Positions 2,890 through 64,000 of a stretch of 64,000 bases of DNA are shown here, in pieces (position 1 is the first letter of the stretch; each line of letters starts with the position of its first letter). The stretch comes from a virus (Duplodnaviria; Heunggongvirae; Uroviricota; Caudoviricetes), in the IMG/VR virus record IMGVR_UViG_2917461297_000001, positions 56,643 through 120,642 of that record. One strand, written 5' to 3'. The notes under the pieces were generated by a model that saw nothing but the letters and a program-made list of their open reading frames with translations, made no database searches and had not been told where the DNA came from. The position numbers and the translations under genes are program-made.

Positions 2890-3942
2890 ATGACAGCGAG
2901 TGTTATAAGATTAGAAAATCATATTATGAGTAGTAAAAGTGTAACTAATAGTGTCATGAGTTTAGTTAATGAATTTGCTAATGAAGCGGGAGCTAATTCA
3001 CAAAGCACTAAGTTAGCTTACTTAAATGATTTAAAACAATATCTTAGCAAAGTCTTTGGAAGCGAGAATATTAAAGTAGACTTAGTCGTTTACACTATGA
3101 GCAGAAAACAGTTAATTCAGTATAGAAGTGTTTTAATTGATAATAAATTAAAGCCAAGTACTATTAATCGTAAAATGTCGGCTATAATCGAATTCGCAAA
3201 ATTCCTATACAACAGCGGGTATGAAATTGACCTCGTGGGTATTAACAACATTGCAAAATTAAAAACATCTAAAAATTCATATGAAGTATTGAGCTATGAT
3301 GAAGCGCTTGAGTTTATCAATTGGTTTAAAGAGAATGAGAAAGAGAAAGCAATTGAGAAATACTATTACACTGCTTTAGCGTTTGACACTGGAGTACGTG
3401 CCGAAGCATTAAACAATATCACTCCTCAATCATTTATCTGGAAGAAAGAAGAAGTTGTATTAAAAGGCGTAGATAAAGGAAAGAAACAATTTATTAAAAG
3501 TTTATCATTAGAATTCGCATCGGCGATGTTTAGCGATTTGCATTTAGATAAGGAATCTACTGAGTCAATCTTCAATTTTTCTAGTGAAGTCAGATATAAA
3601 ATGATGAAGCGGGCTAAAAAGGCTCTAGGATATGAAAATAGAAATATTACTTTTCACAGTTTCAAAAAAGGGGCAGTAAACTACGCCTATGAAGCTACAA
3701 AAGATATTCAAGTAGCTAGACAAGTGGGCAATCATGCGAATATCAACACTACTCAAATTTATCTTGAAGACAATAAGCAAGTGTTTCAAGGTGCTATATC
3801 AAATAAACAGAAAATTGATACGGCTGACATTAGATTTTCTGATTACAGTAAAACTGAGTTAATTGAGGCATTAGGTAATTTACCAGAAGCAACACAATCT
3901 ATGTTGAAAAAAGAATTAGCTTCATTAACGCAAATAAAATAA
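2890..3942 (+). CDS. tyrosine recombinase-like protein (phage integrase family)
   Basis: N-terminal SAM-like core-binding region. Catalytic-domain motifs TGVRAEAL (box I Arg), HSFKKGAVNYA (HxxK in place of HxxR) and GNHANINTTQIYLE (His, then Tyr nucleophile). Confidence 0.6.
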   Translation: MTASVIRLENHIMSSKSVTNSVMSLVNEFANEAGANSQSTKLAYLNDLKQYLSKVFGSENIKVDLVVYTMSRKQLIQYRSVLIDNKLKPSTINRKMSAIIEFAKFLYNSGYEIDLVGINNIAKLKTSKNSYEVLSYDEALEFINWFKENEKEKAIEKYYYTALAFDTGVRAEALNNITPQSFIWKKEEVVLKGVDKGKKQFIKSLSLEFASAMFSDLHLDKESTESIFNFSSEVRYKMMKRAKKALGYENRNITFHSFKKGAVNYAYEATKDIQVARQVGNHANINTTQIYLEDNKQVFQGAISNKQKIDTADIRFSDYSKTELIEALGNLPEATQSMLKKELASLTQIK

Positions 3943-4172
3943 ATTATACGAAAAATTGCATAGACAATAATTGTATTTTGTGGTTAAATGTAAGTAGTGA
4001 GTTAAAATATGCTCAGCTTGACTTTTAATTTGAATTCACTATCAACTGTTGAAACTACGATTTAAATCGATAGGTTTCAACTAATAGATGCTTGTGTTTT
4101 TAAAAATCGAAAAAACAAATTAAACAAAACAGAGAAACCAAAAAATAAAAATCGATAAATCAAAAAGTAAAA

Positions 4173-5486: not shown

Positions 5487-6499
5487 TGTTTTACAATAGT
5501 TTGTATAAGAGACAGTTTTTACAATCTTTAGAGCGTGAAAACGAAATAAGAGTGTATACTGCATTATTCAATAACAGCAGTAAAGTAGAGCAACAATTCG
5601 ATACTGATTTGTATAACTTTACAACTTCTGAAATAGAAATTTTGCTTTATAATATCTATTCCTCCAGTAAAAACACTTTACTAACTTATTTAACATTTGC
5701 TAAAAAGTATACTGATTACGCTATCGAGAGAGGAGATAGATTATCTAACATTAATTTGTTCAGAATGTTTACGTACGATAAGATTGATAAGTTTGTATAT
5801 AAACATAAACAAAAGTTTTTCACGTACGAGAAATTCCTACTACATGTTAGTAGCTTCTATAATGCTAGCGATAGAGCATTAGTTTCAGCAATCTTTCATG
5901 GCATTTCTGGGGCGGCTTATAGCGAACTAATCAATCTAACCATCGATGATATTAAAGAAGCTAGAAGTAATCCAACACATGTCGCTGGTGATGAACAATA
6001 TTATAAATTGAGGCTTTTAAACGATAAGAAAGGTGAAACAATTGAGCGCTATATTGAAGTGCCAGAGGTTTTGTTAGATGATATGGAAAAATCATATAGA
6101 GCTACAATCTATTACACCAAGAACGGTGACCCTAGTTCTAGAAGACCTGCAAAAGACATAATAGGCGGAAATCATATTTTTAGAAATGTCGAGTTTACTG
6201 ACACCACAACAGAACAAATTGATAAGCAAGTAGTATATAGACGAATGAAAGTCCTACAAGACTTAACTAACAATTACATTTCAAGTGTTACTAACGTAAT
6301 TGATTCTGGTATATTGCACTATATGTATTTACTATCAGAAAACGGAAAATTAGATTACATGAAAATAGAAAAAGTGATGAGAAGATATAGTAAACACATT
6401 TATGAAAAGTCACTACCATATACAATCGCTAGGTTTATCAAACAATATCAAGATGCTTTACAAGATTTATATGGAGTAGTAATAGTGAATAAGCCCTAA
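5486..6499 (+). CDS. recombinase-like protein, catalytically degenerate
   Basis: N-terminal integrase SAM-like pattern. The box I-like stretch GISGAAYSELINLTIDDI lacks the catalytic Arg, and no HxxR/Y pair is evident. Confidence 0.3.
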   Translation: MFYNSLYKRQFLQSLERENEIRVYTALFNNSSKVEQQFDTDLYNFTTSEIEILLYNIYSSSKNTLLTYLTFAKKYTDYAIERGDRLSNINLFRMFTYDKIDKFVYKHKQKFFTYEKFLLHVSSFYNASDRALVSAIFHGISGAAYSELINLTIDDIKEARSNPTHVAGDEQYYKLRLLNDKKGETIERYIEVPEVLLDDMEKSYRATIYYTKNGDPSSRRPAKDIIGGNHIFRNVEFTDTTTEQIDKQVVYRRMKVLQDLTNNYISSVTNVIDSGILHYMYLLSENGKLDYMKIEKVMRRYSKHIYEKSLPYTIARFIKQYQDALQDLYGVVIVNKP

Positions 6500-22767: not shown

Positions 22768-25074
22768 ATGAAACAATTAGTATTACTTAGAGGCGCGCCA
22801 GCTAGTGGTAAGTCAACCTTTTTAAAAGAAAATGGCTTAGAACCGTTCGCATTATCACCTGATGTGTTAAGGTATTCGGCACCAGTAGTCAACGAAACAG
22901 GTCAACTGGTAATGTCTCAAGAAAACGATAATAAAGTATGGAAGTTGTTGTTCGAGATTCTTGAAGAGCGTATGAAAAATGGTGATTTTATTATTGTCGA
23001 TGCTACTCATTCAACAGCTAAACTAATTAACAAATATAAAAAATTAAGAGAAAGTTATGGTTACCGTACATATGTGGTTGATTTTGATATACCCTTAGAA
23101 GAATGTTTAAAGAGAAATAGCCGAAGAAAAGAGTATGAATTTGTTCCAGAAGAAGCTATTGAGAATATTCATGAACGATTAAAGTACGAGAATATTCCTA
23201 GTTTTGCTAAAGTGTTAAAACCAGAAGAATTGTTGGAAGAAATTGAATGGAAAGTGCAAGATTTTAATCAATTTAATAAAGTCAAAGTTATTGGTGATGT
23301 GCATGGTTGCTATACTGCATTAAATGAATTAGTTACATATGAAGAAATTGCTGATAATCAAGACACAGCTTATATTTTTGTAGGAGATTTGTTCGATAGA
23401 GGGTTAGAAAACGCAAAAGTATTTGAATTCATTGAATCTATTTATAACTTGTCTAACGTGTTTCTGATTGAAGGGAATCATGAAAGACATTTGAGAACAT
23501 ATATAAAAGTATATGACGAGTTAATTGATGAGCTTAATTATAGCTTAGGTGATACTGAAAAAGATAAGTACAATAAAATGTATAAATACATTAAGTCTCG
23601 TGGATTCATTCAAACGACACTAAAAGAATTTTTAGATAGTGGAATCACAAAAGACCGAGTAAAGCCAATCCTAAGAAAATTGCTACAATGCTTGTATTTT
23701 GAGTTAAATGGTTCTCAATATATTGTGACTCATGGTGGTATTTTACCGAACATGATTCCAAATTTAAACTTAGTTTCTACTAGCCAATTAATTAATGGAA
23801 TTGGTGGATATGAGTTTGAAATCGATGATGAATGGAGTGATGAAAACTTTTACATGATTCAAAACCGTATTATTCAAATACATGGTCACAGAAATCTTTA
23901 TCGTATTCCATTGGACGTAGATGCAAGCTCAATCAACTTAGAAGGAAGAGTTGAGAAAGGTGGGCATTTGAGAGCCATTACTATTATTAAAGGGAACCCT
24001 TTTGTTAAGAACAAAATTGAGACTCATGAAATTAAGAATGATGTGTTTGACTCAAAATGGTTAATTTCAGACGATTACACAGAAAAGTTAGATGTTGATT
24101 TAACAGTAGAACAATTTATTGATGCAGCAAAAAGTGATAGAAAGTATATCAAAGTTCAAAATCAATATGATAATGTGTGCTCTGTTAATTTCACATCAAA
24201 GCTGTTTAATAGTGGGAAATGGAATCAGTTAGCAGTGCATGCAAGAGGGTTATTTGTTAAAGACGATGGAGCGGATAGTGTAGTTAAAGGTCGAGCGTAT
24301 AACAAATTCTTCAACATTGATGAAAACAAAAAAAATAAATTAGATAAACTTATTGACAGACTGGAGTTTCCTGTAAAAGCATATCGAAAAGAAAATGGAT
24401 ATTTAGGAATCCTGTTTTACGATAGTGATATTGACGAACTTGTGTATGCTTCAAAGAGTAAAACTCACAAAGCAAAGTATGACAATCAATATGCGTTGTG
24501 GTTCAAGGATATAGTTGAGAATGCTTTAAGTGTTGATGAATTGGAGAGGCTAAAAAATGAGCTTAAAGAGTACAACGCATCAGCTGTGTTTGAAGTAATT
24601 GATGTTAAGAATGACCCACACATCGCTAAATATGATAGAAGTAAAATTATACTCTTAGATGTTGTAAAGAACCAACTACAATTTGAAAGAGTGAGTGAAG
24701 ATTACAGTCGAGAACTAGCTGCTATGATTGGACTAGAGCACAAGGAGTTAGAGTTTACTTTCAATAACTGGCAAGATTTCTATCAATGGTATAAGGTGCA
24801 AATTAAGAGCTTGGACGCAAAACATGAAGGTTGGGTACTTGAAGACAGCAAGGGCTATATGCTCAAGATAAAATCTAAATGGTACAAAGACTGGAAGTAT
24901 ATTAGAAAGTTCATTGGTAAGATTAACACTGGTTATTCACCAAAACAATTTATTTTACAAAGTAACCATGAAGTAAGAGATTTTTATTACTGGTATAAGA
25001 AAAATGGAAAGAAAACAGATAGAGATAGCGACTTAATTAGATTGAGAGATGAGTTCTACGAACAAGAGGGTTAA
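22768..25074 (+). CDS. Pnkp-like RNA repair enzyme (5'-kinase / 2',3'-phosphatase / ligase-type nucleotidyltransferase fusion)
   Basis: N-terminal P-loop LLRGAPASGKSTF. Central calcineurin-like motifs GDVHGCY, GDLFDRG, GNHE, THGG and GHRN. C-terminal nucleotidyltransferase motif I KxDG (FVKDDGAD). Same architecture as bacterial Pnkp. Confidence 0.6.
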   Translation: MKQLVLLRGAPASGKSTFLKENGLEPFALSPDVLRYSAPVVNETGQLVMSQENDNKVWKLLFEILEERMKNGDFIIVDATHSTAKLINKYKKLRESYGYRTYVVDFDIPLEECLKRNSRRKEYEFVPEEAIENIHERLKYENIPSFAKVLKPEELLEEIEWKVQDFNQFNKVKVIGDVHGCYTALNELVTYEEIADNQDTAYIFVGDLFDRGLENAKVFEFIESIYNLSNVFLIEGNHERHLRTYIKVYDELIDELNYSLGDTEKDKYNKMYKYIKSRGFIQTTLKEFLDSGITKDRVKPILRKLLQCLYFELNGSQYIVTHGGILPNMIPNLNLVSTSQLINGIGGYEFEIDDEWSDENFYMIQNRIIQIHGHRNLYRIPLDVDASSINLEGRVEKGGHLRAITIIKGNPFVKNKIETHEIKNDVFDSKWLISDDYTEKLDVDLTVEQFIDAAKSDRKYIKVQNQYDNVCSVNFTSKLFNSGKWNQLAVHARGLFVKDDGADSVVKGRAYNKFFNIDENKKNKLDKLIDRLEFPVKAYRKENGYLGILFYDSDIDELVYASKSKTHKAKYDNQYALWFKDIVENALSVDELERLKNELKEYNASAVFEVIDVKNDPHIAKYDRSKIILLDVVKNQLQFERVSEDYSRELAAMIGLEHKELEFTFNNWQDFYQWYKVQIKSLDAKHEGWVLEDSKGYMLKIKSKWYKDWKYIRKFIGKINTGYSPKQFILQSNHEVRDFYYWYKKNGKKTDRDSDLIRLRDEFYEQEG

Positions 25075-26330: not shown

Positions 26331-27011
26331 ATGAAAATCAGAAATATAGATTGCTTAATTGGAATGGAAGAAATACAAAAAGAAAGTATTGACGCTTTAA
26401 TTACAGACCCACCATATAATATTGCAAGAGATAATAATTTCAAATCAATGGGTAGAGCAGGGATTGACTTCGGTGAATGGGATAAGAATTTTGATATGAC
26501 AAGTTGGTTGCCAGTCGCTATTTCTAAAATAAAAAAAGGAGGAAATATTGTTATTTTCACTGATTGGAAAGCAATAACACCTATAATTAAAGAATTAGAA
26601 AGATTGGATTGCGACATTAAGGATATGTTGAGAATTGAAAAGTCTAATCCTATGCCACGCAACAGAGATAGACGGTTTATAACGGATTATGAAATTGCAA
26701 TTTGGGCAGTGAAAAAAGGCGAGAAATGGACTTTTAATAGATTATCTGAAACTTACGAAAGACCTTTAATAAAAACGAAAGTCACTCCTAAGTCCGAAAA
26801 AATAAATGGCGGACATCCTACCCAAAAGAATATCGAAACGATGGAGTGGATAATTCAAAGATTGACCAACGAGAGAGATGTCATTCTTGACCCGTTTATG
26901 GGGAGTGGAACAACAGGTGTAGCTTGCAAAAAATTGAATAGAAGATTCATAGGCTATGAATTAGAAGAAGGATATTTTGGAATTGCTAAAGAAAGATTAT
27001 TAATTATTTAG
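26331..27011 (+). CDS. DNA amino-methyltransferase (N6-adenine or N4-cytosine, beta class)
   Basis: Motif IV ALITDPPYN precedes motif I DPFMGSGTTGVA; no cognate restriction endonuclease is evident. Confidence 0.7.
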   Translation: MKIRNIDCLIGMEEIQKESIDALITDPPYNIARDNNFKSMGRAGIDFGEWDKNFDMTSWLPVAISKIKKGGNIVIFTDWKAITPIIKELERLDCDIKDMLRIEKSNPMPRNRDRRFITDYEIAIWAVKKGEKWTFNRLSETYERPLIKTKVTPKSEKINGGHPTQKNIETMEWIIQRLTNERDVILDPFMGSGTTGVACKKLNRRFIGYELEEGYFGIAKERLLII

Positions 27012-31804: not shown

Positions 31805-31836
31805 AGAGATAGTGTTGAGCTATCTCTTTTTATTTT
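31805..31836. terminator. bidirectional rho-independent terminator
   Basis: Stem AGAGATAG/CTATCTCT (8 bp) followed by a T-run, between convergent genes 31513-31797 (+) and 31830-32504 (-). Confidence 0.55.
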
Positions 31837-32504
31837 GATAATTTCTGGCAACCGATGCAAACAATCAAGCCAATAAGTATGTTTATGAAAATTAATGGCA
31901 TTTGCTCTACGAGACCGGTTGGGAGCGACCCGAATATTTTACTAAATAAATATTCATAAATCATTTGTTCGTAAAAATCACTAATAGATTTGCTGAAGTC
32001 GTTAATAACATAAGTCGTTTTTGGGTATTTTACTCTCCCAGTATTCAGAGTATCGAGTAGCTGGTCGAGGAGCTGAAAAGTGAAAAACGACTGTTGTAAA
32101 CTAAAATCTTGTTTTTCTATTTTCTCTATGTTTGAAACAGCTTCTTCAATTATTGAATCATCATTTTCAATTTCTCTTAATATCTTCTCACCAGTAGAAA
32201 TGTTTAAGACGGGAAGTTTAACTTGAGGAGGAACGCTAAGTATCTGTGGAGTTTGTATCTTAGAAAGTTGTGCTGCCAACTCTAATATCGGCTTATTTAA
32301 CTGAAAATAAAAATCTCTGTAAATTTTATTTAATTGTCGGCTAATTTCAAGCGTACTGTTGAGTTCAGGTAAAACTTCCTTGTTATACATTTGAGCCAAT
32401 CTAATTTGTGGTCTCAATGCATTTGTCCTTGAGACGGCTCTACTCATTCTTTGAAAAATTTCCATGTTCTTTCTAAATGGGTCGGGGAAAGTAAAATTAG
32501 ACAA
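31830..32504 (-). CDS. hypothetical protein with C-terminal TM segment
   Basis: 224-aa minus-strand ORF; C-terminal hydrophobic stretch LIFINILIGLIVCIGC. Confidence 0.4.
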   Translation of the reverse strand: MSNFTFPDPFRKNMEIFQRMSRAVSRTNALRPQIRLAQMYNKEVLPELNSTLEISRQLNKIYRDFYFQLNKPILELAAQLSKIQTPQILSVPPQVKLPVLNISTGEKILREIENDDSIIEEAVSNIEKIEKQDFSLQQSFFTFQLLDQLLDTLNTGRVKYPKTTYVINDFSKSISDFYEQMIYEYLFSKIFGSLPTGLVEQMPLIFINILIGLIVCIGCQKLSK

Positions 32505-32524
32505 TAAACAACATCTCCTATTAT

Positions 32525-32938
32525 TTAAATTTTTATATCATATAAACAATCAAACGGTAACCAAATAGAATCGGTAGAACGTTCATTGGTTAATTGAACC
32601 TTTTGATTTAGCTCATCAATAGTTTTAATGTAACCCTTAACTGAGTGCATATAACCATTCTTCCAGTATTCTACTGTTATATAACTATTATTATACACAA
32701 CATATTGAAGTTTTTGGTTTACATCTTGTATTTGTTCTTCAGAAAGTAGTGGCATATCTATTTTGTTTTGATTTTCTTCATATTGCTTTATCATTTCATA
32801 TTGTTCAGGAATAGTTTTAAATGGTTGCCACTTCACAGAGCCACGTCCTTTGGGTATTCTTGGGTTAAGTAAATGTCGTGGTATTTTACGATAATCAGTT
32901 ATATGTTGATATTCTTCAGGTAAGTTTTTATCAATCAT
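32525..32938 (-). CDS. YolD-like protein
   Basis: KGRGSVKWQPFKTIPEQYEMIKQYEE resembles the YolD-family RGxIKW...LPEH core (named after SPbeta yolD). Confidence 0.45.
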   Translation of the reverse strand: MIDKNLPEEYQHITDYRKIPRHLLNPRIPKGRGSVKWQPFKTIPEQYEMIKQYEENQNKIDMPLLSEEQIQDVNQKLQYVVYNNSYITVEYWKNGYMHSVKGYIKTIDELNQKVQLTNERSTDSIWLPFDCLYDIKI

Positions 32939-33098: not shown

Positions 33099-33127
33099 TT
33101 GACATATAGAAAATGAGGTTGTATAGT
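33099..33127 (+). promoter_or_regulatory. strong sigma-A promoter driving the TnpB-like gene
   Basis: TTGACA at 33099-33104, 17-nt spacer, TATAGT at 33122-33127; the AAATAAATTAAT motif lies 8 nt upstream. Confidence 0.6.
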
Positions 33128-33169
33128 ATTAAGTGTAACAAAGAAAAAAAATTAAATGAGGTGAAACGA

Positions 33170-34522
33170 ATGGAAAGTGAAAAAGAAAAATATGTCGTGC
33201 AATCGTACGGGATTAAGCTAATTAAACCAGTAGGTGTTGATGAAGGAGATTGGGATTTTGCTGGTAAAGTGTTAAGAGATTTAGACTACGCTTGCTTTAG
33301 AGTTAAAAATAAAGCAGCTACTAGAACTTACATGAACGTAATTGAGAAATTAGAATATGAAAACATTCATGGTAAAGGAACATATGATAAGTATTTTAAA
33401 ACGAGATATGGTAAGACATTTTCAGCCTATAACAGCGAATGCGCAAGAGAAGATAAAGAATTAAATAAAGGAGATTTATACAGAGAATATTTCAATTTAA
33501 TGGCTCGTGAGGGTGAAAAGGTTGTAAAATATAACATGAAAAAAATATTAAATGGGAACGCAAGCAACATTACTTTCAAAAGAAATCAACCAGTCCCTAT
33601 AACTTCAAGAATGATTTTTATCACAAAAGAAAGTGGGAAATATTATGCTGAGTTGACTTTGCTAAGTCCTGAAAAAGCGAAAGAGCTTGGCAGAAAAGGG
33701 AAGAATGGTACAAGAATCAAATTTTTACTTAGCTCTAAAGGACAGGAAAAAGTTATATTAGACAGATTAACAAGTGGTGAATATGATTTAAGAGATAGTC
33801 ATATTCACGTTAAAAAGAAAGGAAATAAATTAACTAACTATTTAATCATTGCTTATAGACATAAAGTAAAAGACGATAACGATTTGATTCCGAATAAAGT
33901 ATTAGGTGTTGACTTAGGAGTATCAAAAGCGGCATATATGGCTGTTAGTGAATCACCAGTGTCTGAATATATAAATGGTGGAGAAATTGAGCAGTTTAGA
34001 AATGGCGTTGAAGCTAGAAGGAACGGCATGAGAAATCAGTTGAAATATCACTCTAGCAACAGAAGCGGACATGGCAGAGCAACGAAACTAAAGCCGTTAG
34101 AAAAACTTAGAGAGAAAGTCAGCAATTTTAGAAAACTAACAAATCATCGTTATGCTAAATTTATTGTTGATACCGCATTGAAAAATAATTGCTCAATTAT
34201 TCAAATGGAAGAATTGAAAGGTATCTCGAAAAACGACACATTTCTGAAGCGTTGGAGTTATTTTGATTTACAAGAAAAAATTGAGAATAAAGCAATAGCA
34301 GTAGGTATTGAGGTGAAAAAAGTTTCTCCTAAATTTACCTCTCAAAGATGTAATAAATGCGGTTATATCGATAAAGAGAGCCGAAAAAGTCAAGAGAAGT
34401 TTGAATGTGTGAATTGTGGGCATAAAACTAACGCTGATTTAAATGCCGCAAGAAACCTTTCAATGCTCAATGTTGAAAAAGAAATAAAAGCGCAATGTAA
34501 GGCACAAAAAATTAAGTATTGA
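33170..34522 (+). CDS. TnpB/Cas12-like RNA-guided nuclease (RuvC + zinc finger)
   Basis: RuvC-I VLGVDLGVS, RuvC-II IIQMEELKG and RuvC-III NADLNAARNL, with the zinc finger CNKCGY...CVNCGH between II and III. Start moved to ATG 33170 (RBS GAGGTG) because 33113 lies inside the promoter. Confidence 0.75.
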   Translation: MESEKEKYVVQSYGIKLIKPVGVDEGDWDFAGKVLRDLDYACFRVKNKAATRTYMNVIEKLEYENIHGKGTYDKYFKTRYGKTFSAYNSECAREDKELNKGDLYREYFNLMAREGEKVVKYNMKKILNGNASNITFKRNQPVPITSRMIFITKESGKYYAELTLLSPEKAKELGRKGKNGTRIKFLLSSKGQEKVILDRLTSGEYDLRDSHIHVKKKGNKLTNYLIIAYRHKVKDDNDLIPNKVLGVDLGVSKAAYMAVSESPVSEYINGGEIEQFRNGVEARRNGMRNQLKYHSSNRSGHGRATKLKPLEKLREKVSNFRKLTNHRYAKFIVDTALKNNCSIIQMEELKGISKNDTFLKRWSYFDLQEKIENKAIAVGIEVKKVSPKFTSQRCNKCGYIDKESRKSQEKFECVNCGHKTNADLNAARNLSMLNVEKEIKAQCKAQKIKY

Positions 34523-39858: not shown

Positions 39859-41262
39859 ATGGCAGAAAGAAACGAATATGTACTACACCATAACCATTCA
39901 TATTACTCTAACTTGCGTTTAACAGATGCGATTACTTCACCAAGACAATTAATCGAGACAGCCAAACAATATGGTTATAAAGGTATGAGTATTACTGAAC
40001 ATGAATCACTTTCTAGCGCTGTCGATATGATTAAAACAGTGAAAGAGATGAAAGCTAGTGGAGAATTACGAGAAGATTTTAGAATGCTGTTGGGCAATGA
40101 AATCTATCTCGTTGATAGCTTGGAAGAGGTTAGAGACAACTATGAAAGCGGAAAAACAAAATTCCCACATTTTTGTTTAATTGCAAAGAATAGAAAAGGT
40201 TTTGAAGCATTAAGTAAATTAAGCTCACAAGCGTGGAAGAATTCGTTTTTTAGTAGTTCTATTATGGAACGTGTTCCAACTGAAAAAGCATATTTAAGAG
40301 AAGTAGCGCAGTCAGATGAGTATAAAGGAACATTGATGGCAAGCAGCGCATGTCTTGGAAGCCCAATCTGCTTATATTTACAAGAAAAAATGCTTATGGA
40401 ACAAACTTTTGATAAAGAAAAGATTCAAGAAGCACACAACAAAGCTAAAAATGAAGTTCAATGGTGTGTTGATACATTTGGTAAAGACGATTTTTACATT
40501 GAATTACAGCCAGCGGATACACCCGTGCAACGTTATGTTAATGAAAACTTATTAGAGTTTGTTAAAGAATTTGATTTAAAATATATAGTTGCTTGTGACA
40601 CACATTACGCCAACAAGTCTCATGCTACAATTCATGCTGCATTTCTCAACTCTAAAAATGAAGAGCGTGAGGTAGAAGAGTTCTATAAGTATACATATAT
40701 GCATAGTGTAGACGATATTTATAAACAAATGGCTTACTATTTAGGTGAAGACGTGGTCAAACAAGCGCTAGAAACTACAACGGAATTATACGATAAATCA
40801 GAGGATTATGACTTAGCCCATTCACCAATTATTCCACGAGCCGAGATTCCTGAATTTGAGTTAAAGCACTTGTTTCAGCCCGCTTATGACAAATATAAGA
40901 GTCTTGAAAGATTAGCGTATTCTGATAAGAAAGACGAAAGATATATGCTTCATTTGTTAGAGGAAGGTTATCTGAGGGAGCTACACAAAGAAGATATAAC
41001 TAAAGAAGAGTTTCATCAAATATTAGCAAGGCTAGATGTTGAAATGGAAGAGATTTTAGGTGTAGGAGATAAGATTAATCAAACAGTAAGCTCATACTAT
41101 ATTACTGTGCGTGATATAATCAACACAATTTGGGAAGAAGATACTTGTAACGGATATTCTGGTTCATTAGTTGGCAGTGGACGTGGGTCATCTGGTGGTT
41201 TCTTATCATTGTTCTTACTTGGAATTACTCAAGTTAATCCATTAGAACATAAAAATATGCCA
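39859..41262 (+). CDS. dnaE: DNA polymerase III alpha (DnaE-family), exon 1 (PHP domain and start of catalytic core)
   Basis: PHP signature YVLHHNHSYYSNLRLTDA. Homology runs to ...NPLEHKNMP; the annotated ORF then reads into non-homologous sequence and stops at 41349. Confidence 0.55.
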
Positions 41263-41656
41263 CATTTCAGACATTTGCATAAAAGTCGTCAAGATTTCCC
41301 TAAATTATTGGGGATTAAATGTGAACGCAAGACAAAGCGGTGTGCTTAGAATTATTCTAAGTGCTAACAGTATCAGTTGAATAAGACTACCATTCAAGCC
41401 TTACAAGGAGATAATGGAAATAAATTAAAAGACGAAGCAGCTGACTAAGAGAGCCTAAGGTCTATTAATAAAAATAGATAGCTGGTAATACTGTGCGAAG
41501 CCTTTAGTTCAAAGGAACGTGCAACGACTATCCTGTAAAGGAGTACGCCTGATTTTGTCACAGGTGGAAGCGCATTTACATACATATGTATGGTGATATA
41601 GTCTATTCCGACTGTTAATTCAGTGTTAAAGTATTAGGAAACTAACGGTGTATAAG
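41263..41656 (+). ncRNA. putative ORF-less group I intron interrupting dnaE
   Basis: About 394 nt with no ORF, inserted inside the conserved NPERxSMP-DIDIDF region; the 3' end is ...UAUAAG (terminal G); exon 2 resumes in frame with DVDVDIE. Confidence 0.4.
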
Positions 41657-44143
41657 GACGTAGATGTAGACATAGAAAGTAAACGAAGACAAGAAGTTAT
41701 TCGAGCATTAAAGAATAAATATGGTGAAGATAAGGTTCTAAATGTTGCTACTTTTACAACAGCTGGTACTAAATCTTGTATTAAAATAGCAGCAAGAGGA
41801 TTGGGAATCGAGGATACAGAAGCCCAATATATTGCTAGTTTGATTCCAACTGAGCGTGGACAACAGTATACACTCAGTGACTGTTTATATGGCAATGAAG
41901 AAAAAGGTAGAAAGAAACAACAACAATTTATTAATGAGATGGAAAAGTATCCAGAATTATTGAAAACAGCTTTAGGTTTAGAAAGTATTGTCGTTGCTAA
42001 ATCACAACATGCTGGTGGAGTAATCATCTTTAATGATGAGATTCATAAACACAGTGCAATGATGAAAGCGGCAAAAGGAGAAGCAAGTATTACTCAATGG
42101 TCGCTTAAAGATAGTGAGTACATGGGTTTAGTAAAGTTTGACTTATTATCGATTGATAACTTGGATAGGATTAGAAGCACCTTAGAATTGATGGAAAAAG
42201 ACGGTGTGATTGAATCAAAAGGAAGTCTAAAAGATACATTTAACGAGTATCTACACCCACGTGTACTTAATCATGAGGATAAACGTTACTATGAATTAGC
42301 TTCAAGAGGGATAGTAAACGATACATTCCAATTCAACACTAATATTGGTATTGAAACATTAAAGAGAATCAAGCCTGAAAACTTTGAACAATTCAGTGCT
42401 GCTAACTCATTAATGCGATTGCAGTCACAAGAAGGTAAAGAACCACCAATGGACATTTTCATTAAGCATAAAGAAAACATTCAAACTTGGTATGATGAAA
42501 TGAATGAGTGGGGATTAACAGATAGCGAAATTAAGGTTATGGAAGAGCATATTGGACATACGTTAGGAGTCTCTCCTGTGCAAGAACAAGCTATGGGACT
42601 ATCTGGAGACCCTAGAATCGCAAACTTCACTGTAGAAGAGCAGAATAAGCTCAGAAAGGCTATTGCAAAGCCAAAAGGAGCGGCTTTAGATGAAATAAAA
42701 TTGCTGTTTTATCGTAAAGGTAAGAAACAAGGAACAAGCAAAAACTTACTTGATTATGTATGGGAAACTCAATTCACACCAATGTTCAGTTATGCATTCA
42801 GTTCCATTCACTCTAATCTGTACTCAATCATCGGTATTCAGAATTTACATCTCAACTTGTTCTACAATCCAATCTATTGGCAAACAGCGTGTTTAAACGT
42901 TGACAGTGGCGCTACATCAGAAGATAGTGAATTTCTCGTAGACCATGAAAAGATTGCTAATGGTATTGGTAAGATTAAAGAGTTCGGTGTAGAAGTTAAG
43001 TTACCTGATGTTAACAAGTCTGATTTTGCGTTTACACCTGACGCTGAACACAATGTAATCATTTATGGACTTAAGCCTGTTAAGTCATTAAACTCAAAGA
43101 CAACGCACCATATTATCGAAAACAGACCATACAACTCTATCGAAGATGTACTTACTAAGCTATATGACAATAAACTGGTTACAAACACACAATTAATTAA
43201 TATGGTTAAGTCTGGCATGTTAGATAACATTTGCGAGTCACGTAAAGTAGCGATGATGGAAGTTATCAAACATATAACTAAAGTCCCTGAAACTTTGACT
43301 ATGCAAAATATTAAGACATTAATTGAGTCCGGTATTCTTGAAGGTAGACCAGAAGAAGAAATGGTGCTATTTAGAGAATCATTTAAGAACAAAGTGGTCA
43401 GAAAAGAGAAGCAAGGTAAATATAATGTTAAGATATTTAAAGTTGAAGATATGGAATTGTACGACAAATTGTTTGGTAACACAGGTGTCGTAAATGTTAC
43501 AAGTAACTATTATGAAGTTGATGAGAAGCAGTTCAAGAAAGTGTTCGATAAGAAGATTAAAGACCTTAAAGAATGGTTAAAGTCTGATGAGCAACTTAAG
43601 AAAGTACAGAGTTATGAATTGAATAAGCAGTGGATTAAATATGCTTTAGGTAGTTATTCAAAATGGGAAATGGAAACATTGTCGTTCTACTACCATGAAC
43701 ACGAGCTATCTCAAGTAGACAGTAAAATGTACAACCTAAGCAGATACAATGAATTGCCTGAAGAACCCCAAATAGTTGATACATTTATGTTTAAAGGAAG
43801 AGAGTTCCCTAAGTACAAAATCGATTCAATTGCCGGTGTTGTGATTTCTAAGAACGCTACAAAGAATATGGTCACAATTATTGCTACCGATGGTTCAGTA
43901 GTACCAATTAAGTATCAAGGAAATTTCTCTTACTACAACAAGGCAGTAAAAAGAAATGGCAAGATAGTTGAGGATAGTTGGTTTGGTAAAGGGAATTTAT
44001 TAATTGTTAGTGGATTTAGAAGAGGTAATCAATTTGTCGCTAAGAGATATGCTGATTCAAACACTTCCACGACAACAAAGCTAATTGATTATGTAGGAAA
44101 GAACGGCGAAGTCACTTTTAAACTAGAAAGAGAATATATTTAA
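41657..44143 (+). CDS. dnaE: DNA polymerase III alpha (DnaE-family), exon 2
   Basis: DVDVDIESKRRQEVIRALKNKYGEDKVLNVATFTTAGTKSCIKIAARGLGI aligns with DnaE PDIDIDF...RREEVI..KYG...TFGT..AK..IRDVGRVLG. Confidence 0.6.
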   Translation, partial: DVDVDIESKRRQEVIRALKNKYGEDKVLNVATFTTAGTKSCIKIAARGLGIEDTEAQYIASLIPTERGQQYTLSDCLYGNEEKGRKKQQQFINEMEKYPELLKTALGLESIVVAKSQHAGGVIIFNDEIHKHSAMMKAAKGEASITQWSLKDSEYMGLVKFDLLSIDNLDRIRSTLELMEKDGVIESKGSLKDTFNEYLHPRVLNHEDKRYYELASRGIVNDTFQFNTNIGIETLKRIKPENFEQFSAANSLMRLQSQEGKEPPMDIFIKHKENIQTWYDEMNEWGLTDSEIKVMEEHIGHTLGVSPVQEQAMGLSGDPRIANFTVEEQNKLRKAIAKPKGAALDEIKLLFYRKGKKQGTSKNLLDYVWETQFTPMFSYAFSSIHSNLYSIIGIQNLHLNLFYNPIYWQTACLNVDSGATSEDSEFLVDHEKIANGIGKIKEFGVEVKLPDVNKSDFAFTPDAEHNVIIYGLKPVKSLNSKTTHHIIENRPYNSIEDVLTKLYDNKLVTNTQLINMVKSGMLDNICESRKVAMMEVIKHITKVPETLTMQNIKTLIESGILEGRPEEEMVLFRESFKNKVVRKEKQGKYNVKIFKVEDMELYDKLFGNTGVVNVTSNYYEVDEKQFKKVFDKKIKDLKEWLKSDEQLKKVQSYELNKQWIKYALGSYSKWEMETLSFYYHEHELSQVDSKMYNLSRYNELPEEPQIVDTFMFKGREFPKYKIDSIAGVVISKNATKNMVTIIATDGSVVPIKYQGNFSYYNKAVKRNGKIVEDSWFGKGNLLIVSGFRRGNQFVAKRYADSNTSTTTKLIDYVGKNGEVTFKLEREYI

Positions 44144-48059: not shown

Positions 48060-48680
48060 ATGGCAAATCATATTAAAGATAAAGTAGTTTATATGGGTGG
48101 ACATCTGTTAAACGAAGCTATGGTCGAGTATCGTGAGAAACAGCATAATATAGTAGAGGATATTGTAGGAGTGACACCTTATTCACCGCACAAGGATAAA
48201 TCAATTAACGACAAACAAAATGCAGTACAAGAAGGATTAGCTGAGCGTATTTTACGCAATGATTTTAAAGCTATGCAAGAATCAGATATTTTTGTATTTG
48301 ATATTCTTAATGAGGGATTAGGAACAATTGCAGAACTGGGTATTGTTTTGGGAATGAAGCATCAAGCTCAAAAAACTATTGAACGTTTAGAAGAGGAGTC
48401 AGAAATTGTAAGGTATGATACTGAGGGCTATGAGACTGATTCATATGAACATCTACAAGATGAAATTGAAGAACAAGAAAAGATTTTTAATAAACCAGTA
48501 CTCTGCTATTGTTCTGATATTCGTCAGGGACATGGCAAGCCTTACAACAACCCTGACAGAGCGGAGTTCAGTACGAACCAGTTTGTTTACGGTGCTGTAT
48601 TGGAGCTCACTAATGGTGTAGGGTTCATTTCTTGGGAGAAAGTGCTTGAAGAATTAGAGAAATTAGGTGTTTCGAAATGA
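48060..48680 (+). CDS. nucleoside 2-deoxyribosyltransferase-like protein
   Basis: VVYMGGHLL near the N-terminus and FDILNEGLGTIAELGIVLGM resemble the NDT-family Rossmann motif and DxGTxxExG catalytic motif; start ATG 48060 after GGGGGAG. Confidence 0.4.
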   Translation: MANHIKDKVVYMGGHLLNEAMVEYREKQHNIVEDIVGVTPYSPHKDKSINDKQNAVQEGLAERILRNDFKAMQESDIFVFDILNEGLGTIAELGIVLGMKHQAQKTIERLEEESEIVRYDTEGYETDSYEHLQDEIEEQEKIFNKPVLCYCSDIRQGHGKPYNNPDRAEFSTNQFVYGAVLELTNGVGFISWEKVLEELEKLGVSK

Positions 48681-49402
48681 TTGAACTTAACAAAATTTAT
48701 AACGAAGATTGTTTAGAAGGTATGAAAAGAATACCGGATAAATCAGTTGATATGATATTATGTGATTTGCCTTATGGAACCACTAGGAATAAATGGGATA
48801 TAGTTATTGATTTAGAAAAGTTGTGGGAACAGTATAAGCGGGTTATTAAAGATAATGGCGTTATCGCACTTACAGCAGCCCAACCTTTTGAATCACGACT
48901 TGTTAATAGCAATCCTAAAATGTTCAAATACGATTTAATTTGGAAGAAGAGTTTACCTACCGGATTCTTAAATGCAAAACGTATGCCTTTAAGAAGTCAT
49001 GAAAGTATTCTTATTTTCTACAAAAAACCTCCCGTATACAATCCTATTATGCGCAAAGGAAAGTTTAGAAATAAAGGGAATACAGGTAAAAAAGGTGGCA
49101 GATGTTATGGCGAAACTAAAAGGTATGAATCATGGAATGATGAGTACTATCCTACATCGGTAATCGAAGTTAGTAATGCTAGTCAGAAAGGGAAAATACA
49201 CCCTACTCAGAAACCAGTTGAGTTATTTCAGTGGTTGATTAAAACGTATACAAATGAGGGAGATACGGTACTGGATAACTGTGTCGGCAGTGGCACAACA
49301 GCAATTGCTTGTATGAATACAGGTAGAAACTATATTGGTTATGAGCTAGATAAAGAATATTACGATGTTGCAATTGGACGCATTGAGTCAGCTAAACAAT
49401 AA
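48677..49402 (+). CDS. DNA amino-methyltransferase (beta class)
   Basis: Motif IV-like MILCDLPYGTT precedes motif I VLDNCVGSGTTAIAC. Confidence 0.6.
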   Translation: MIELNKIYNEDCLEGMKRIPDKSVDMILCDLPYGTTRNKWDIVIDLEKLWEQYKRVIKDNGVIALTAAQPFESRLVNSNPKMFKYDLIWKKSLPTGFLNAKRMPLRSHESILIFYKKPPVYNPIMRKGKFRNKGNTGKKGGRCYGETKRYESWNDEYYPTSVIEVSNASQKGKIHPTQKPVELFQWLIKTYTNEGDTVLDNCVGSGTTAIACMNTGRNYIGYELDKEYYDVAIGRIESAKQ

Positions 49403-49434: not shown

Positions 49435-49612
49435 TGTTTGATTTTGAAACATTTGATTATAGTAAATTAATGTGGCATTCAGACTGGAACGGTGATGAAG
49501 TAGGATACGACGATGTAGATGTTGTTGGTTATTATTCGTATCACGATTTAAATTTATACATAGACACGAGTACATTAAACATACTTGAAGCATGGTTTAA
49601 TGAAGAAGATTA
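49435..49612 (+). CDS. small hypothetical protein
   Basis: 59-aa ORF with RBS AAGGTGA. Confidence 0.3.
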
Positions 49613-49774
49613 AATTTTACTTTTATTTTCTTTATGAATTGCTTCATATGAGGTAGAAGCATACTTGTCTATCTCACAAAAATTTAAGAGCTCTAGGTCA
49701 TATCCTAAGTTTTTAATCGCTGTTTCTGGCGCTCCAATGCCAGAGAATAAGCTCAACATTCTAATCTTTTTCAT
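49611..49774 (-). pseudogene. C5-cytosine DNA methyltransferase 5' fragment (motifs I-II) on inverted segment
   Basis: Minus-strand translation MKKIRMLSLFSGIGAPETAIKNLGYDLELLNFCEIDKYASTSYEAIHKENKSKI* carries C5-methyltransferase motif I (FSGIGA) and motif II (EID); RBS AAGGAGAG upstream on the minus strand. Confidence 0.6.
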
Positions 49775-49831
49775 TATTTCTCTCCTTGGTATTATATAGT
49801 TTTAAGGTGAACGTGATAAAAGTAAAAATTT
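49611..49831. repeat. inverted repeats (about 17 bp, 12-bp perfect core ATAAAAGTAAAA) flanking a 187-bp invertible segment
   Basis: TTAAATTTTACTTTTAT at 49611-49627 versus ATAAAAGTAAAAATTTA at 49815-49831; the core is in the same codon phase in both methyltransferase fragments. Confidence 0.55.
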
Positions 49832-50690
49832 ATCCGACGTAAGATTAGTTAACGGTACAACAATTAAAGATGTTGATTTATTGTTCCACGGCTCACCTTG
49901 CCAATCGTTTAGTATAGCGGGTAAACAAGAAGGTGGAGATAAAAATAGTGGAACAAAATCATCTTTAATGTGGGAAACAGTTAGAATTGTATCAGAATGT
50001 AAGCCCAAGGTTGTTATCTGGGAGAATGTTAAATCTGTATTGAATAAGAATCATAAACATAACTTTGACGCTTATTTAAATGAGTTAGATAGCTTAGGAT
50101 ATACTTCTAGTTACAAAATTATAAGTCCAAGAGATATTGGTGAGGCTCAAAGCCGACCTCGTGTCTTTGTTGTAAGTATATTAGGGGGCAAATTCGAGTT
50201 TCCCGACATTCAAAAGCAAAAACAGCGTGTGATTGGCGATTATTTAGAGCCAAAAGCAAGTTAATCATACATACTTTCTAAGCAATCAGTTTTGGCTCTA
50301 GCAAACAACAATCCTAACTTTAAAGGTAGAATGACAGTGTTAAAACATAATGAATTAGCTTGTTGTTTAGTGGCTAAAGGTGGAAAGGCGGCTAGGACTA
50401 ATAATTTTGTGTTATACAACACAGAAGATTATTCTAAGCTGATTAACCCCAAAGATATTAACTATCTAGTGGATAATAACATACATATTAGAGGTTTAAC
50501 TCCTTTAGAATACTGGAGACTTCAAGGTTTTACAGACAAACAATTTTATGAAGCTCAAAAAGCATTAGCTGATACATATAAGAATGGTGAATTAATTAAA
50601 GCAGATGCTCAATTGTATAAACAAGCAGGAAATTCAATTAATGTAAAAGTATTGGAAAGTTTTATTGGTGAGGTTATTGAGAATTTATAA
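49805..50690 (+). pseudogene. C5-cytosine DNA methyltransferase body (motifs IV-X), no start codon, one in-frame TAA
   Basis: LFHGSPCQSFSIAGK (motif IV PCQ), ENVKSVL (motif VI) and QAGNSINVKVL (motif X); the frame opens at 49805 with no start; an in-frame TAA at 50262-50264 splits it into ORFs 49881-50264 and 50292-50690. Confidence 0.6.
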
Positions 50691-61501: not shown

Positions 61502-62056
61502 ATGAAAAGGTGGACGAAGGAAGAGGTTGAGCTACTTATCGACTTAAAAGAAAATAAGAAACTTAAATATAAGGACATTGCTAATATTTTAAACAAAACA
61601 CCTCAGCAATGTGCTAGTAAATATCAACGTCACCACAAATATGATTACACGATAAATGGCTCTTTTAGGACAAATAGAAAATGGACGCATGAAGAAGACA
61701 ACCTTTTAAAAAAATATAAAGACAACACATACAAAGAATTGATGAAATTATTTCCTGACAGAACCATTAACGGCATTACCAACAGAATGCAAAAATTAGG
61801 GGTTAAAAGAGTAGCAAATAATACTATTAATTATGAACAAGAACAGTTTATAAAAGAAAATTATTTAAAGATGACTAATATTCAACTGGCTAGAGCTTTG
61901 AATGTAGACAGGCAAGTCATAGCCAGAGTTAAAAGAAGAGAAGGACTAGAAACAGACAAAGTGTGGAGACTAAAAAAGATTGAATTTGATGAGGAAGATG
62001 TAATGTCTATAAACGCAGAATTTGAACTTAGTTTAGAAAAGAAAGAAGGAAGCTAA
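61502..62056 (+). CDS. Myb/SANT-like DNA-binding protein (candidate recombination accessory/regulator)
   Basis: Repeated W/helix pattern (RWTKEEVELL.., RKWTHEEDNLLKKY) typical of SANT/Myb repeats, plus a C-terminal HTH; its stop overlaps the recombinase start (TAATG). Confidence 0.4.
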   Translation: MKRWTKEEVELLIDLKENKKLKYKDIANILNKTPQQCASKYQRHHKYDYTINGSFRTNRKWTHEEDNLLKKYKDNTYKELMKLFPDRTINGITNRMQKLGVKRVANNTINYEQEQFIKENYLKMTNIQLARALNVDRQVIARVKRREGLETDKVWRLKKIEFDEEDVMSINAEFELSLEKKEGS

Positions 62057-63664: not shown

Positions 63665-64000
63665 ATGGACGGAACAGCGATCATGCAAGGTGTCGCTACC
63701 ATTTTCATTGCACAATTATCTGGTGCCGATTTAACAGTACTACAACTCATTACCGTAGTCACTGTAGCCGTGATTGCATCTGTCGGAACAGCCGGCGTCC
63801 CTGGTGTAGGACTCATCATGTTAGCGATGGTATTGACTGCAGTCGGTTTAAATCCAGCCGCTATCGGTATTATCTTAGGGATTGACCGCTTGTTAGATAT
63901 GACGCGTACAGCTGTCAACATTACGGGTGATGCCGCATGTGCGTTGATTTTATCAGAACGTGAAGGTAAAAAACTAAAAGGTAATATGCATGTAGAATAA
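63665..64000 (+). CDS. host dicarboxylate/amino acid:cation symporter (DAACS) family gene, 3' portion (continues past window)
   Basis: [22 protein letters not shown] is the DAACS C-terminal signature; GC content is higher than in the phage genes; the frame is open from 63605 but upstream residues are not transporter-like. Confidence 0.55.

Follow-up and report, generated by a model that had tools for sequence, protein, structure and literature searches.

A probable inversion switch at the 5' end of a phage C5-cytosine methyltransferase gene in Staphylococcus prophages

Small invertible DNA elements controlled by tyrosine recombinases, such as the RecV switches of Clostridioides difficile (cwpV, flgB, cmrRST) and the fim switch of Escherichia coli (FimB/FimE), have repeats of about 9–21 bp and elements of about 150–314 bp, and RecV is encoded far from its targets. 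The invertible segments of phages Mu (G segment, Gin) and P1 (C segment, Cin) are of a different kind: they span about 3 kb, carry alternative 3' tail-fibre exons, recombine at 26-bp sites with the help of an adjacent serine invertase and an enhancer, and give rise to mixed progeny, a form of bet-hedging over the hosts that can be infected. Here we describe a locus in a 64,000-nt stretch of Caudoviricetes DNA (positions 56,643 to 120,642 of the IMG/VR record IMGVR_UViG_2917461297_000001; hereafter the window, numbered from its first base), in which a gene for a C5-cytosine DNA methyltransferase lies in two pieces on opposite strands. From comparisons of related genomes, we consider it very probable that the locus is a recurrently inverting ON/OFF switch on a phage methyltransferase gene, and that the switch is OFF in the window genome. 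It resembles the RecV and fim systems in its short repeats, small element and ON/OFF output. However, those elements carry a promoter or a 5' untranslated region element and are chromosomal, whereas the window cassette carries a start codon and catalytic motifs, and belongs to a phage gene. With Mu and P1 it shares a phage-borne inversion that has one boundary inside a coding sequence (CDS), but the window cassette measures only 189 nt, is located at the 5' end, offers no alternative exon, and is accompanied by no small serine invertase among the approximately 40 window open reading frames (ORFs) that were scanned.

The geometry of the locus fits a recognised class, the partial intergenic or gene-altering invertons, in which one repeat lies inside a CDS and the other outside, and inversion alters the encoded product (Milman et al. 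2023, PMC9881135; Chanin et al. 2023/2024, PMC10028968). In the text of these two articles, the inverton catalogues are dominated by shufflon-like domain swaps (hsdS, PglX, tail fibres, SusC), the partial intergenic class significantly exceeds the others in length, and neither a cytosine-methyltransferase nor a Staphylococcus example appears. The present element differs from the catalogued ones in having a cassette of 163–192 nt without an alternative exon, with a pure ON/OFF effect on an orphan phage C5-methyltransferase. Inversion-driven variation of methylomes has been described for the type I hsdS "epigenetic invertons" (Streptococcus pneumoniae SpnD39III/PsrA; Huang et al. 2020, PMC7672463), and is reported to affect fragments of methyltransferases in gut bacteria (PMC11741434). 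The hsdS invertons and the simple sequence repeat phasevarions (Mod) are like the window locus in that a reversible, heritable change of the methylome is brought about through the DNA of a methyltransferase locus. The hsdS invertons, however, change specificity and usually have an adjacent recombinase, whereas the window locus is ON/OFF and has none; phasevarions switch by slippage of a repeat tract; and both are host N6-adenine systems, while the window gene encodes a type II-like orphan phage 5-methylcytosine (5mC) enzyme and would switch by inversion. Our literature search found no description of an orphan phage C5-methyltransferase gene that is turned ON and OFF by inversion at its 5' end, including in a 2026 review of methyltransferase regulation in prokaryotes. 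Gene-overlapping inversion is already known, and what appears to be new is the inversion-switched 5' end of this kind of phage gene.

ORFs of at least 90 amino acids (aa) in the window are nearly all on the plus strand, and the 54-codon ORF on the minus strand that begins the methyltransferase is one exception (Table 1). Its product, MKKIRMLSLFSGIGAPETAIKNLGYDLELLNFCEIDKYASTSYEAIHKENKSKI followed by a stop codon, contains C5-cytosine DNA methyltransferase motifs I and II. The plus-strand frame that opens 32 bases to its right (GERDKSKNLSDVRLVNGTTIKDVDLLFHGSPCQ...) is without a usable start codon, and continues through motifs IV–X to 50690. A first-pass annotation made from the window sequence had proposed this division, including a ribosome-binding site (RBS) belonging to the minus-strand piece, and its boundaries needed to be moved by only one base each (from 49611 to 49610 and from 49805 to 49806). 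A pair of inverted repeats sharing a perfect 12-bp core brackets the pieces, as had also been noted, although the arms are corrected here to 19 nt with 89% complementarity according to a repeat finder, and the distance between the perfect cores to 189 nt in place of 187. The outer part of the left arm overlaps the stop codon (49611–49613) of an upstream 59-aa ORF. Only seven distinct perfect inverted pairs of at least 12 bp within 400 nt exist in the whole window. Because a second 19-nt pair with 89% complementarity is present nearby, the repeat by itself is unremarkable; in our judgement it is made remarkable by its conservation and by its position, exactly bracketing a strand-flipped gene piece and in phase with it. 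No further copies of the switch arm that could be other targets of a recombinase were found in the window, and a scan of its full length against Rfam yielded no matches.

Table 1. Coordinates of the methyltransferase switch and of two recombinase genes in the window.
Feature	Position	Strand	Remarks
YopP-like tyrosine recombinase, candidate invertase	2890..3942	+	Pfam Phage_integrase and SAM-like N-terminal domain; 46 kb from the switch
Left inverted-repeat arm	49608..49626		perfect 12-bp core TTTTACTTTTAT at 49615-49626
N-terminal fragment ORF	49610..49774	-	54 aa, MKKIRMLSLFSGIGAPE...HKENKSKI, then stop
Invertible cassette, 189 nt, OFF	49627..49815	-	promoter-like site, RBS, start codon, codons 1-50 (motif I FSGIG, motif II EID)
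RBS AAGGAGAG of the N-terminal fragment	49780..49787	-	direct sequence reading; AAGGAGA conserved in relatives
Promoter-like site TTATCA-17-TATAAT (10/12)	49791..49819	-	consensus scan, prediction only; -35 box lies across the boundary between right arm and cassette
Methyltransferase body, part 1	49806..50261	+	open frame without start; motifs IV PCQ, VI ENV, VIII QSRPR
Right inverted-repeat arm	49816..49834		perfect core ATAAAAGTAAAA at 49816-49827; inside the CDS, codons N-K-S-K-N-L
In-frame TAA	50262..50264	+	codon 199 of the reconstructed gene; Glu (GAG/GAA) in closest relatives
Methyltransferase body, part 2	50265..50690	+	target-recognition region, motifs IX-X, ...QAGNSINV..., natural stop codon included
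Large serine recombinase, 519 aa	62056..63615	+	Pfam Resolvase and Recombinase; sole Resolvase-domain protein found among the scanned ORFs

When the 189-nt segment is inverted in silico, the two pieces join across their shared KSK codons (...HKENKSKNLSDVRLVNG...) into a gene of 340 codons, confirming the in-frame fusion that the first-pass annotation had predicted. Alignments of the rebuilt protein show no gap at the junction, whether with the intact 343-aa methyltransferases of the Staphylococcus phages PT1-1 and PT94 (69% identity), with a 342-aa protein of S. pseudintermedius (P0001, 88% identity), or with M.HhaI, to which it aligns end to end at residues 4–325 (E = 6e-28). It contains all motifs of the C5-cytosine DNA methyltransferases (PF00145 / TIGR00675) in canonical order and scores 188.2 bits against TIGR00675 dcm, for which the cut-off is 100.65. 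In the window itself, however, both the inversion and a TAA codon interrupt the gene. The junction is situated in the linker that connects motif II with the GDI-type motif III. Recombination inside the 12-bp core would invert a cassette made up of the RBS, the start codon and about 50 codons. In the ON orientation, the N-terminal codons would be fused in frame to the body to give a full enzyme of 340–342 aa; in the OFF orientation, the body would be left without a start codon, an RBS, and motifs I and II. We also considered whether the two OFF fragments could assemble as a split enzyme, which is unlikely given that the body has no in-frame start codon with an RBS.

In contrast to the split window gene, the methyltransferase genes of PT1-1 and PT94, Sextaecvirus phages from sewage, are collinear and have at best a weak inverted repeat of 10 bp at the homologous positions. 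In PT1-1, this pair is TTTTGTTTTT / AAAAACAAAA (L001:2937-2946 and 3150-3159; the same in locus L002 and PT94), and, relative to the arms of the prophages, it shows co-variation of its central bases (ACT/AGT versus GTT/AAC). Since shuffled sequences matched it in 13 of 200 trials, the pair is not significant alone, and we treat it as a lead and not as evidence. No close relative was returned when the region, and also 25 kb of the window, were compared with phage records by megablast.

Relatives of the gene were found by a protein search and by a search with the 54-aa fragment, and their DNA was then compared. The same species return both full-length (340–342 aa) and N-terminally truncated (275–302 aa) versions of the protein. 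Stand-alone N-terminal fragments match the 54-aa query, and identical or nearly identical short ORFs have been called as genes in other OFF genomes (P0121–P0126). Every staphylococcal locus compared has a left arm AAATTTT(T)ACTTTTAT and a right arm ATAAAAGTAAAAATTT with 189–192 nt between them, and within these arms the segment was found in both orientations. It is ON, and thus opposite to the window, in two S. pseudintermedius loci (L013, L014) and one S. hyicus locus (L022). It is OFF in the window, in the S. pseudintermedius type (L004, L023–25, L044–46), in S. chromogenes (L015), and in the S. hyicus type (L016–21 and L052, including the complete genomes CP008747 and CP170216). At the ON and OFF junctions the inner flanks are exactly swapped and reverse-complemented: in S. 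hyicus, CATGAC comes after the left arm when ON and CCTCAT when OFF, with ATGAGG and GTCATG, respectively, before the right arm. The inverted repeats therefore bracket the segment precisely, as in an inverton, and the same element occurs in nature in both orientations, among staphylococci and also in a lineage of gut phages described below. An additional C5-methyltransferase gene is located upstream of the locus in the S. chromogenes relative (L015).

Loci of opposite orientation can be nearly identical otherwise. Between L024 (OFF) and L013 (ON), the 190-nt segment is 100% identical, the 1-kb right flank 99%, and the left flank 97%; between L022 (ON) and L017–21 (OFF), the right flank is 100% identical over 1000 nt. 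In both S. pseudintermedius and S. hyicus, the ON and OFF segments are 96–100% identical and have identical arms, while these two lineages are separated from each other by identities of only about 61–64% in the left flank, 73–74% in the right flank and 78–80% in the segment. Since nearly identical ON/OFF pairs occur inside diverged lineages, orientation is independent of phylogeny, and the flips are, to judge from these alignments, recent and independent.

A rough census of populations, in which only the cluster members listed (subsets of the clusters) were counted, gave about 16 contigs with the 342-aa ON form and about 84 with the 283-aa OFF form in S. pseudintermedius, and about 15 with the 341-aa ON form and about 28 with OFF forms of 302, 277 or 306 aa in S. 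hyicus/agnetis. Both a 340-aa ON form and a 285-aa OFF form are present among the listed members from S. chromogenes, and for S. delphini a 275-aa OFF form was listed and no ON form was seen. Such polymorphism would also be expected if ON and OFF were two old, stable alleles, derived from one ancient inversion that spread by recombination between prophages and no longer switching. All of the variation observed is indeed between genomes, with a single orientation in every assembly. We nevertheless regard this explanation as improbable: both states occur in at least three Staphylococcus lineages and in unrelated phages, and ON/OFF pairs with 99–100% identity would require several independent recent events.

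The conservation of the arms and the selection acting on the gene pieces bear on the same question. The 12-bp core is 100% conserved across four lineages, compared with about 48–51% identity in the adjacent 30 nt of non-coding sequence and 77–81% in the adjacent 30 nt of coding sequence, and no synonymous position of the right arm varies. The perfect conservation of the left arm, which is non-coding, is not what stable alleles would predict. In genomes that are all OFF, the ratio of nonsynonymous to synonymous substitutions (dN/dS) was 0.00–0.09 for the N-terminal fragment and 0.08–0.10 for the body, and eight of the nine reconstructed genes had no internal stop codon. A permanently split gene would lose such constraint, and the pieces must therefore spend evolutionary time joined and in use; low dN/dS in both pieces of OFF genes is equally unexpected of an allele that has long been split. 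The proposal of the first-pass annotation that the locus is an ON/OFF inverton in its OFF state is thus supported by the two orientations with invariant arms, by the occurrence of a second, unrelated lineage, and by strong purifying selection on both gene pieces in OFF genomes.

A short homopolymer in the arms helps to place the crossover. The S. hyicus loci, ON and OFF alike, have a run of four T in the left arm and of five A in the right, and in S. pseudintermedius both 4/5 and 5/5 combinations occur. Because the T-run stays in place when the cassette flips, the crossover must lie in the inner arm, within TTTTACTTTTAT. The window has the 4/5 combination, and exchange in the inner core restores the reading frame. 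The T-run (window 49615-49620 versus 49822-49826) has four T in the window, L004, S. hyicus and S. chromogenes, and five in the other S. pseudintermedius loci, while the A-run of the right arm is always five. Having four T shortens the perfect repeat from 17 to 12 bp, and it is conceivable that the rate of switching could be tuned in this way. The variable T-run lies outside the reading frame of the ON gene, and the switching would occur by inversion and not by the repeat slippage that characterises phasevarions.

The in-frame TAA in the window raises the possibility that the locus is a one-off rearrangement in a decaying pseudogene, which the first-pass annotation had also entertained, envisaging a single orientation beside collinear relatives that lack repeats. 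The nonsense codon, coming on top of the inversion, is what speaks for decay. We consider a pseudogene rearrangement very improbable as an account of the inversion, however, given that the homologous prophages contain both orientations, that ON/OFF pairs are found among them, and that the inversion with the same arms is common to many genomes in which the gene is otherwise intact. The TAA itself is limited to the window lineage, and codon 199 is GAG or GAA (Glu) in P0001, P0002, P0005 and L004, with His or Pro near this position in the more distant PT1-1 and PT94 proteins. The frame 3' of the TAA is intact and conserved, which indicates that the nonsense change is recent. The codon reads as a recent, private nonsense mutation (G-to-T, GAA to TAA), so that the part of the earlier annotation that suggested decay stands, and its other suggestion, a further layer of control, does not: the residue is Glu in the closest relatives, and all eight other reconstructed genes are uninterrupted. 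A programmed read-through or recoding site was considered and ruled out, since close relatives of the S. pseudintermedius type have an ordinary Glu codon there. The switch is intact in the window genome, although turning it ON would produce no more than a 198-aa fragment.

Over 6783 nt, the window is 100% identical to PPRV01000020.1 of GCA_002902785.1 and to an independent Logan assembly, SRR5029766_40 (run SRR5029766), including the orientation and the TAA. The TAA would be a sequencing error only if the GenBank and Logan assemblies share the same reads. We give almost no credence to the idea that the strand flip is an assembly artefact, for which we found nothing in favour. In addition to the agreement of these two assemblies, the same architecture is present in the complete genomes CP008747, CP120078 and CP170216, and arms of 12–19 nt are shorter than the k-mers commonly used in assembly. 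The contigs of L044 and L045 end near the switch, but not at the branch points that mixed orientations would be expected to create, and these ends speak neither for nor against such a mixture.

A second phage lineage has an analogous arrangement. The search with the 54-aa fragment also returned N-terminal fragments of 61–92 aa, all of which diverge after ...AIHKVDKKL, on gut-metagenome contigs of about 190 kb that contain NrdD, PARP-like and HU genes. In the OFF loci of this lineage (L026–32, L050), the strand of the N-terminal fragment is opposite to that of the methyltransferase body and of all neighbouring genes. Here the arms, AAAATTAATTTTTTAT / ATAAAAAATTAAATTT, enclose 163 nt and are located at the homologous codon (VDKKL|NLNDI). 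Full-length proteins of 487 and 457 aa exist, and the corresponding DNA (L040) is ON with the same arms; L041–43 are ON as well. Between L050 (OFF) and L041 (ON), the segment is 100% and the left flank 97% identical. Scans of IMG/VR with exact patterns and protein patterns returned nothing close for the gut-phage lineage, and its ON forms were found only through the protein database. Two further features of these loci were observed. In L041 (2966-3165), L042 and L043, all ON, the right arm is mutated (ATAATAAATTAAATTT, giving D-N-K-L), and the longest perfect repeat with the left arm is about 7 bp; these may be natural "locked ON" variants, whereas L050, with perfect arms, carries the identical segment OFF. 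In L028 and L029, both OFF, a frameshift splits the body into ORFs of 298 and 91 aa, reflecting either decay while OFF or an assembly error.

The two lineages can be compared for what their cassettes have in common. In the gut phages the distance from the arm to the start codon is only 18 nt, and a TTGACA box is located just outside the left arm. So short a distance leaves no room for a promoter, and the content common to both lineages is therefore the RBS, the start codon, and motifs I and II. The promoter that the first-pass annotation had placed on the segment is accordingly retained as a consensus match in the window, and similar sites (TTATCA-17-TATAAA) are kept in S. pseudintermedius relatives, but not as conserved content of the cassette. 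If the predicted promoter is real, transcription from it would run leftwards when the switch is OFF, antisense both to the 59-aa ORF upstream and to the N6/N4-methyltransferase gene at 48677-49402.

The arm sequences vary between lineages, with each arm matching its own partner. It is possible, though we hold this only tentatively and at somewhat less than even weight, that phage C5-methyltransferases have a conserved flip-switch at their 5' end, situated at the same codon in both lineages, with co-varying arms and no linked invertase, flipped by a recombinase or without one, and serving as epigenetic bet-hedging and, in lysogens, as a prophage-borne phasevarion. As for the agent of inversion, the short arms, the segment of 160–190 nt and the precise exchange are like those of the fim and RecV switches, and therefore favour a site-specific recombinase of the phage or the host, which would probably be of the tyrosine type.

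The window encodes several recombinase-like proteins: the tyrosine recombinase, an MrpR-like protein (5486-6499), the large serine recombinase and a TnpB (33113-34522). None of their genes adjoins the switch or is specifically linked to it, and in no locus of either lineage was a recombinase gene found within 3–6 kb of the switch. The small serine invertase gene (Resolvase domain plus HTH, about 190 aa) that adjoins the segment in Hin/Gin/Cin-type systems, which use sites of about 26 bp, is likewise missing within this distance in every locus. The first-pass annotation had named the tyrosine and the large serine recombinases as candidate invertases, and neither is specifically supported. The former is Xer-like, and when weakly aligned with XerA of archaea (E about 0.007) it apparently keeps R, K, H, H and Y, with the second Arg replaced by Lys (HSFK). 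It shares 53% identity with a "site-specific tyrosine recombinase" of "Staphylococcus phage SPbeta-like", and has homologues in SPbeta-like phages of Staphylococcus, Mammaliicoccus and Bacillus and also in Lactococcus phages. The YopP-like gene is on the same uncultivated viral genome (UViG) as L004. We rejected such co-occurrence as specific evidence tying it to the switch, on the ground that the gene is common to SPbeta-like phages generally. The serine recombinase is followed, at 63665-64000, by the 3' part of a host sodium:dicarboxylate symporter gene. It is most likely the prophage integrase, as its position at the end of the prophage suggests, and an unlikely invertase, and the symporter gene is presumably the integration target. 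A gene for a Myb-like DNA-binding protein (61502-62056) precedes it.

The lack of an invertase next to the switch in either phage lineage could also mean that the inversions are real and recurrent, but proceed without a dedicated enzyme. The locus would then be a contingency locus, flipping by short-homology recombination or template switching, mainly during lytic replication, and perhaps helped by a Sak4-like AAA_24 protein, a RecJ-like nuclease and RusA; the window phage encodes proteins of all three kinds. The arms, which are lineage-specific yet self-matching (TTTTACTTTTAT in the Staphylococcus prophages, TTAATTTTTTAT in the gut phages, and the weaker TTTTGTTTTT pair in PT1-1), and the one clean orientation in each lysogen assembly are compatible with this explanation. 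We nonetheless find it rather unlikely. A homology of 12–17 bp is very short for ON/OFF ratios of about 15–35% among isolates, and template switching between short inverted repeats is rare and often produces something other than a clean inversion. Furthermore, where the two arms differ by a single base, the exchange still stays within the inner core, a precision typical of site-specific exchange, and the lengths of the segment (163–192 nt) and of the arms match known tyrosine-recombinase switches.

Several points weigh against a recurrently inverting switch of the kind that we favour. All of the evidence consists of comparisons between genomes, and each assembly examined crosses the switch in one orientation, although this fits a low switching rate in lysogens. 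There is no adjacent invertase gene and no small serine invertase among the window ORFs scanned, and the YopP-like recombinase is widespread in SPbeta-like phages and apparently has Lys at its second catalytic Arg in the weak alignment. In the window genome, the nonsense codon breaks the gene, leaving a switch without functional output there. The cassette promoter is a match to a consensus, and the bet-hedging role is drawn from general knowledge of restriction systems.

The gene content surrounding the switch indicates that the window is part of an SPbeta-like Staphylococcus prophage: it has a yop-type module, an MrpR_N_CB domain at 5486-6499 and a terminal serine recombinase, and related UViGs are 118–122 kb in length. 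The module (2890-6499) resembles yopP/yopQ/yopR of SPbeta, and consists of the tyrosine recombinase, a DndB-like protein (4173-5486) and the protein with the MrpR N-terminal core-binding domain (5486-6499), which is probably the master repressor of the prophage. The TnpB-like ORF at 33113-34522 (OrfB_IS605 and a Cas12f1-like TNB domain) is located beside a short minus-strand block (31830-32938) with a YolD-like gene. DNA polymerase III alpha is encoded in two ORFs, 39859-41349 (PHP and the start of the NTPase domain) and 41648-44143 (the rest), separated by a gap of 298 nt in which Rfam detected no intron at the gathering threshold; a split gene, a frameshift or an intron that went unrecognised could each explain the arrangement. 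Two methyltransferases of the N6_N4_Mtase family are present, one at 26331-27011 and the other, at 48677-49402, directly upstream of the switch, so that the phage has at least three methyltransferases. A 768-aa fusion protein (22768-25074) combines a polynucleotide-kinase-like AAA domain, a metallophosphatase and a T4-type RNA ligase, looks like an RNA-repair enzyme (Pnkp/Rnl-like), and is perhaps a counter-defence against host systems that cleave tRNA.

In public annotation, many OFF bodies appear as methyltransferase genes of 275–302 aa, and the N-terminal fragments as "DNA cytosine methyltransferase" or hypothetical protein. The OFF body and the N-terminal fragment should instead be treated as halves of one switchable gene.

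A function for the switch can be postulated. Phage methyltransferases protect against type II restriction, while 5mC exposes DNA to type IV enzymes, for example SauUSI in staphylococci. Inversion would keep populations of the phage and its lysogens mixed for 5mC-methylated and unmethylated DNA, and mixed progeny would hedge between hosts whose restriction is blocked by methylation and hosts with type IV enzymes that attack methylated DNA. Alternatively, the switch may serve to limit the cost of methylating the chromosome of the lysogen. If such methylation is costly, the OFF state may be favoured in lysogens, which would fit both the OFF majority and the extra knockout mutation in the window genome. 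A prophage methyltransferase, PamA, has been reported to alter phenotypes of S. aureus (cited in PMC13076061), and it is conceivable that the switch acts as a prophage-borne phasevarion in lysogens.

Phage methyltransferases are usually seen as constitutive anti-restriction armour. A reversible and heritable switch on such a gene in two unrelated phage lineages, if true, would mean that phages diversify their own epigenetic state, and would be a counterpart of the tail-fibre inversions of Mu and P1. In lysogens of the veterinary and zoonotic species S. pseudintermedius, S. hyicus and S. chromogenes, the switch could change the methylome of the host as well.

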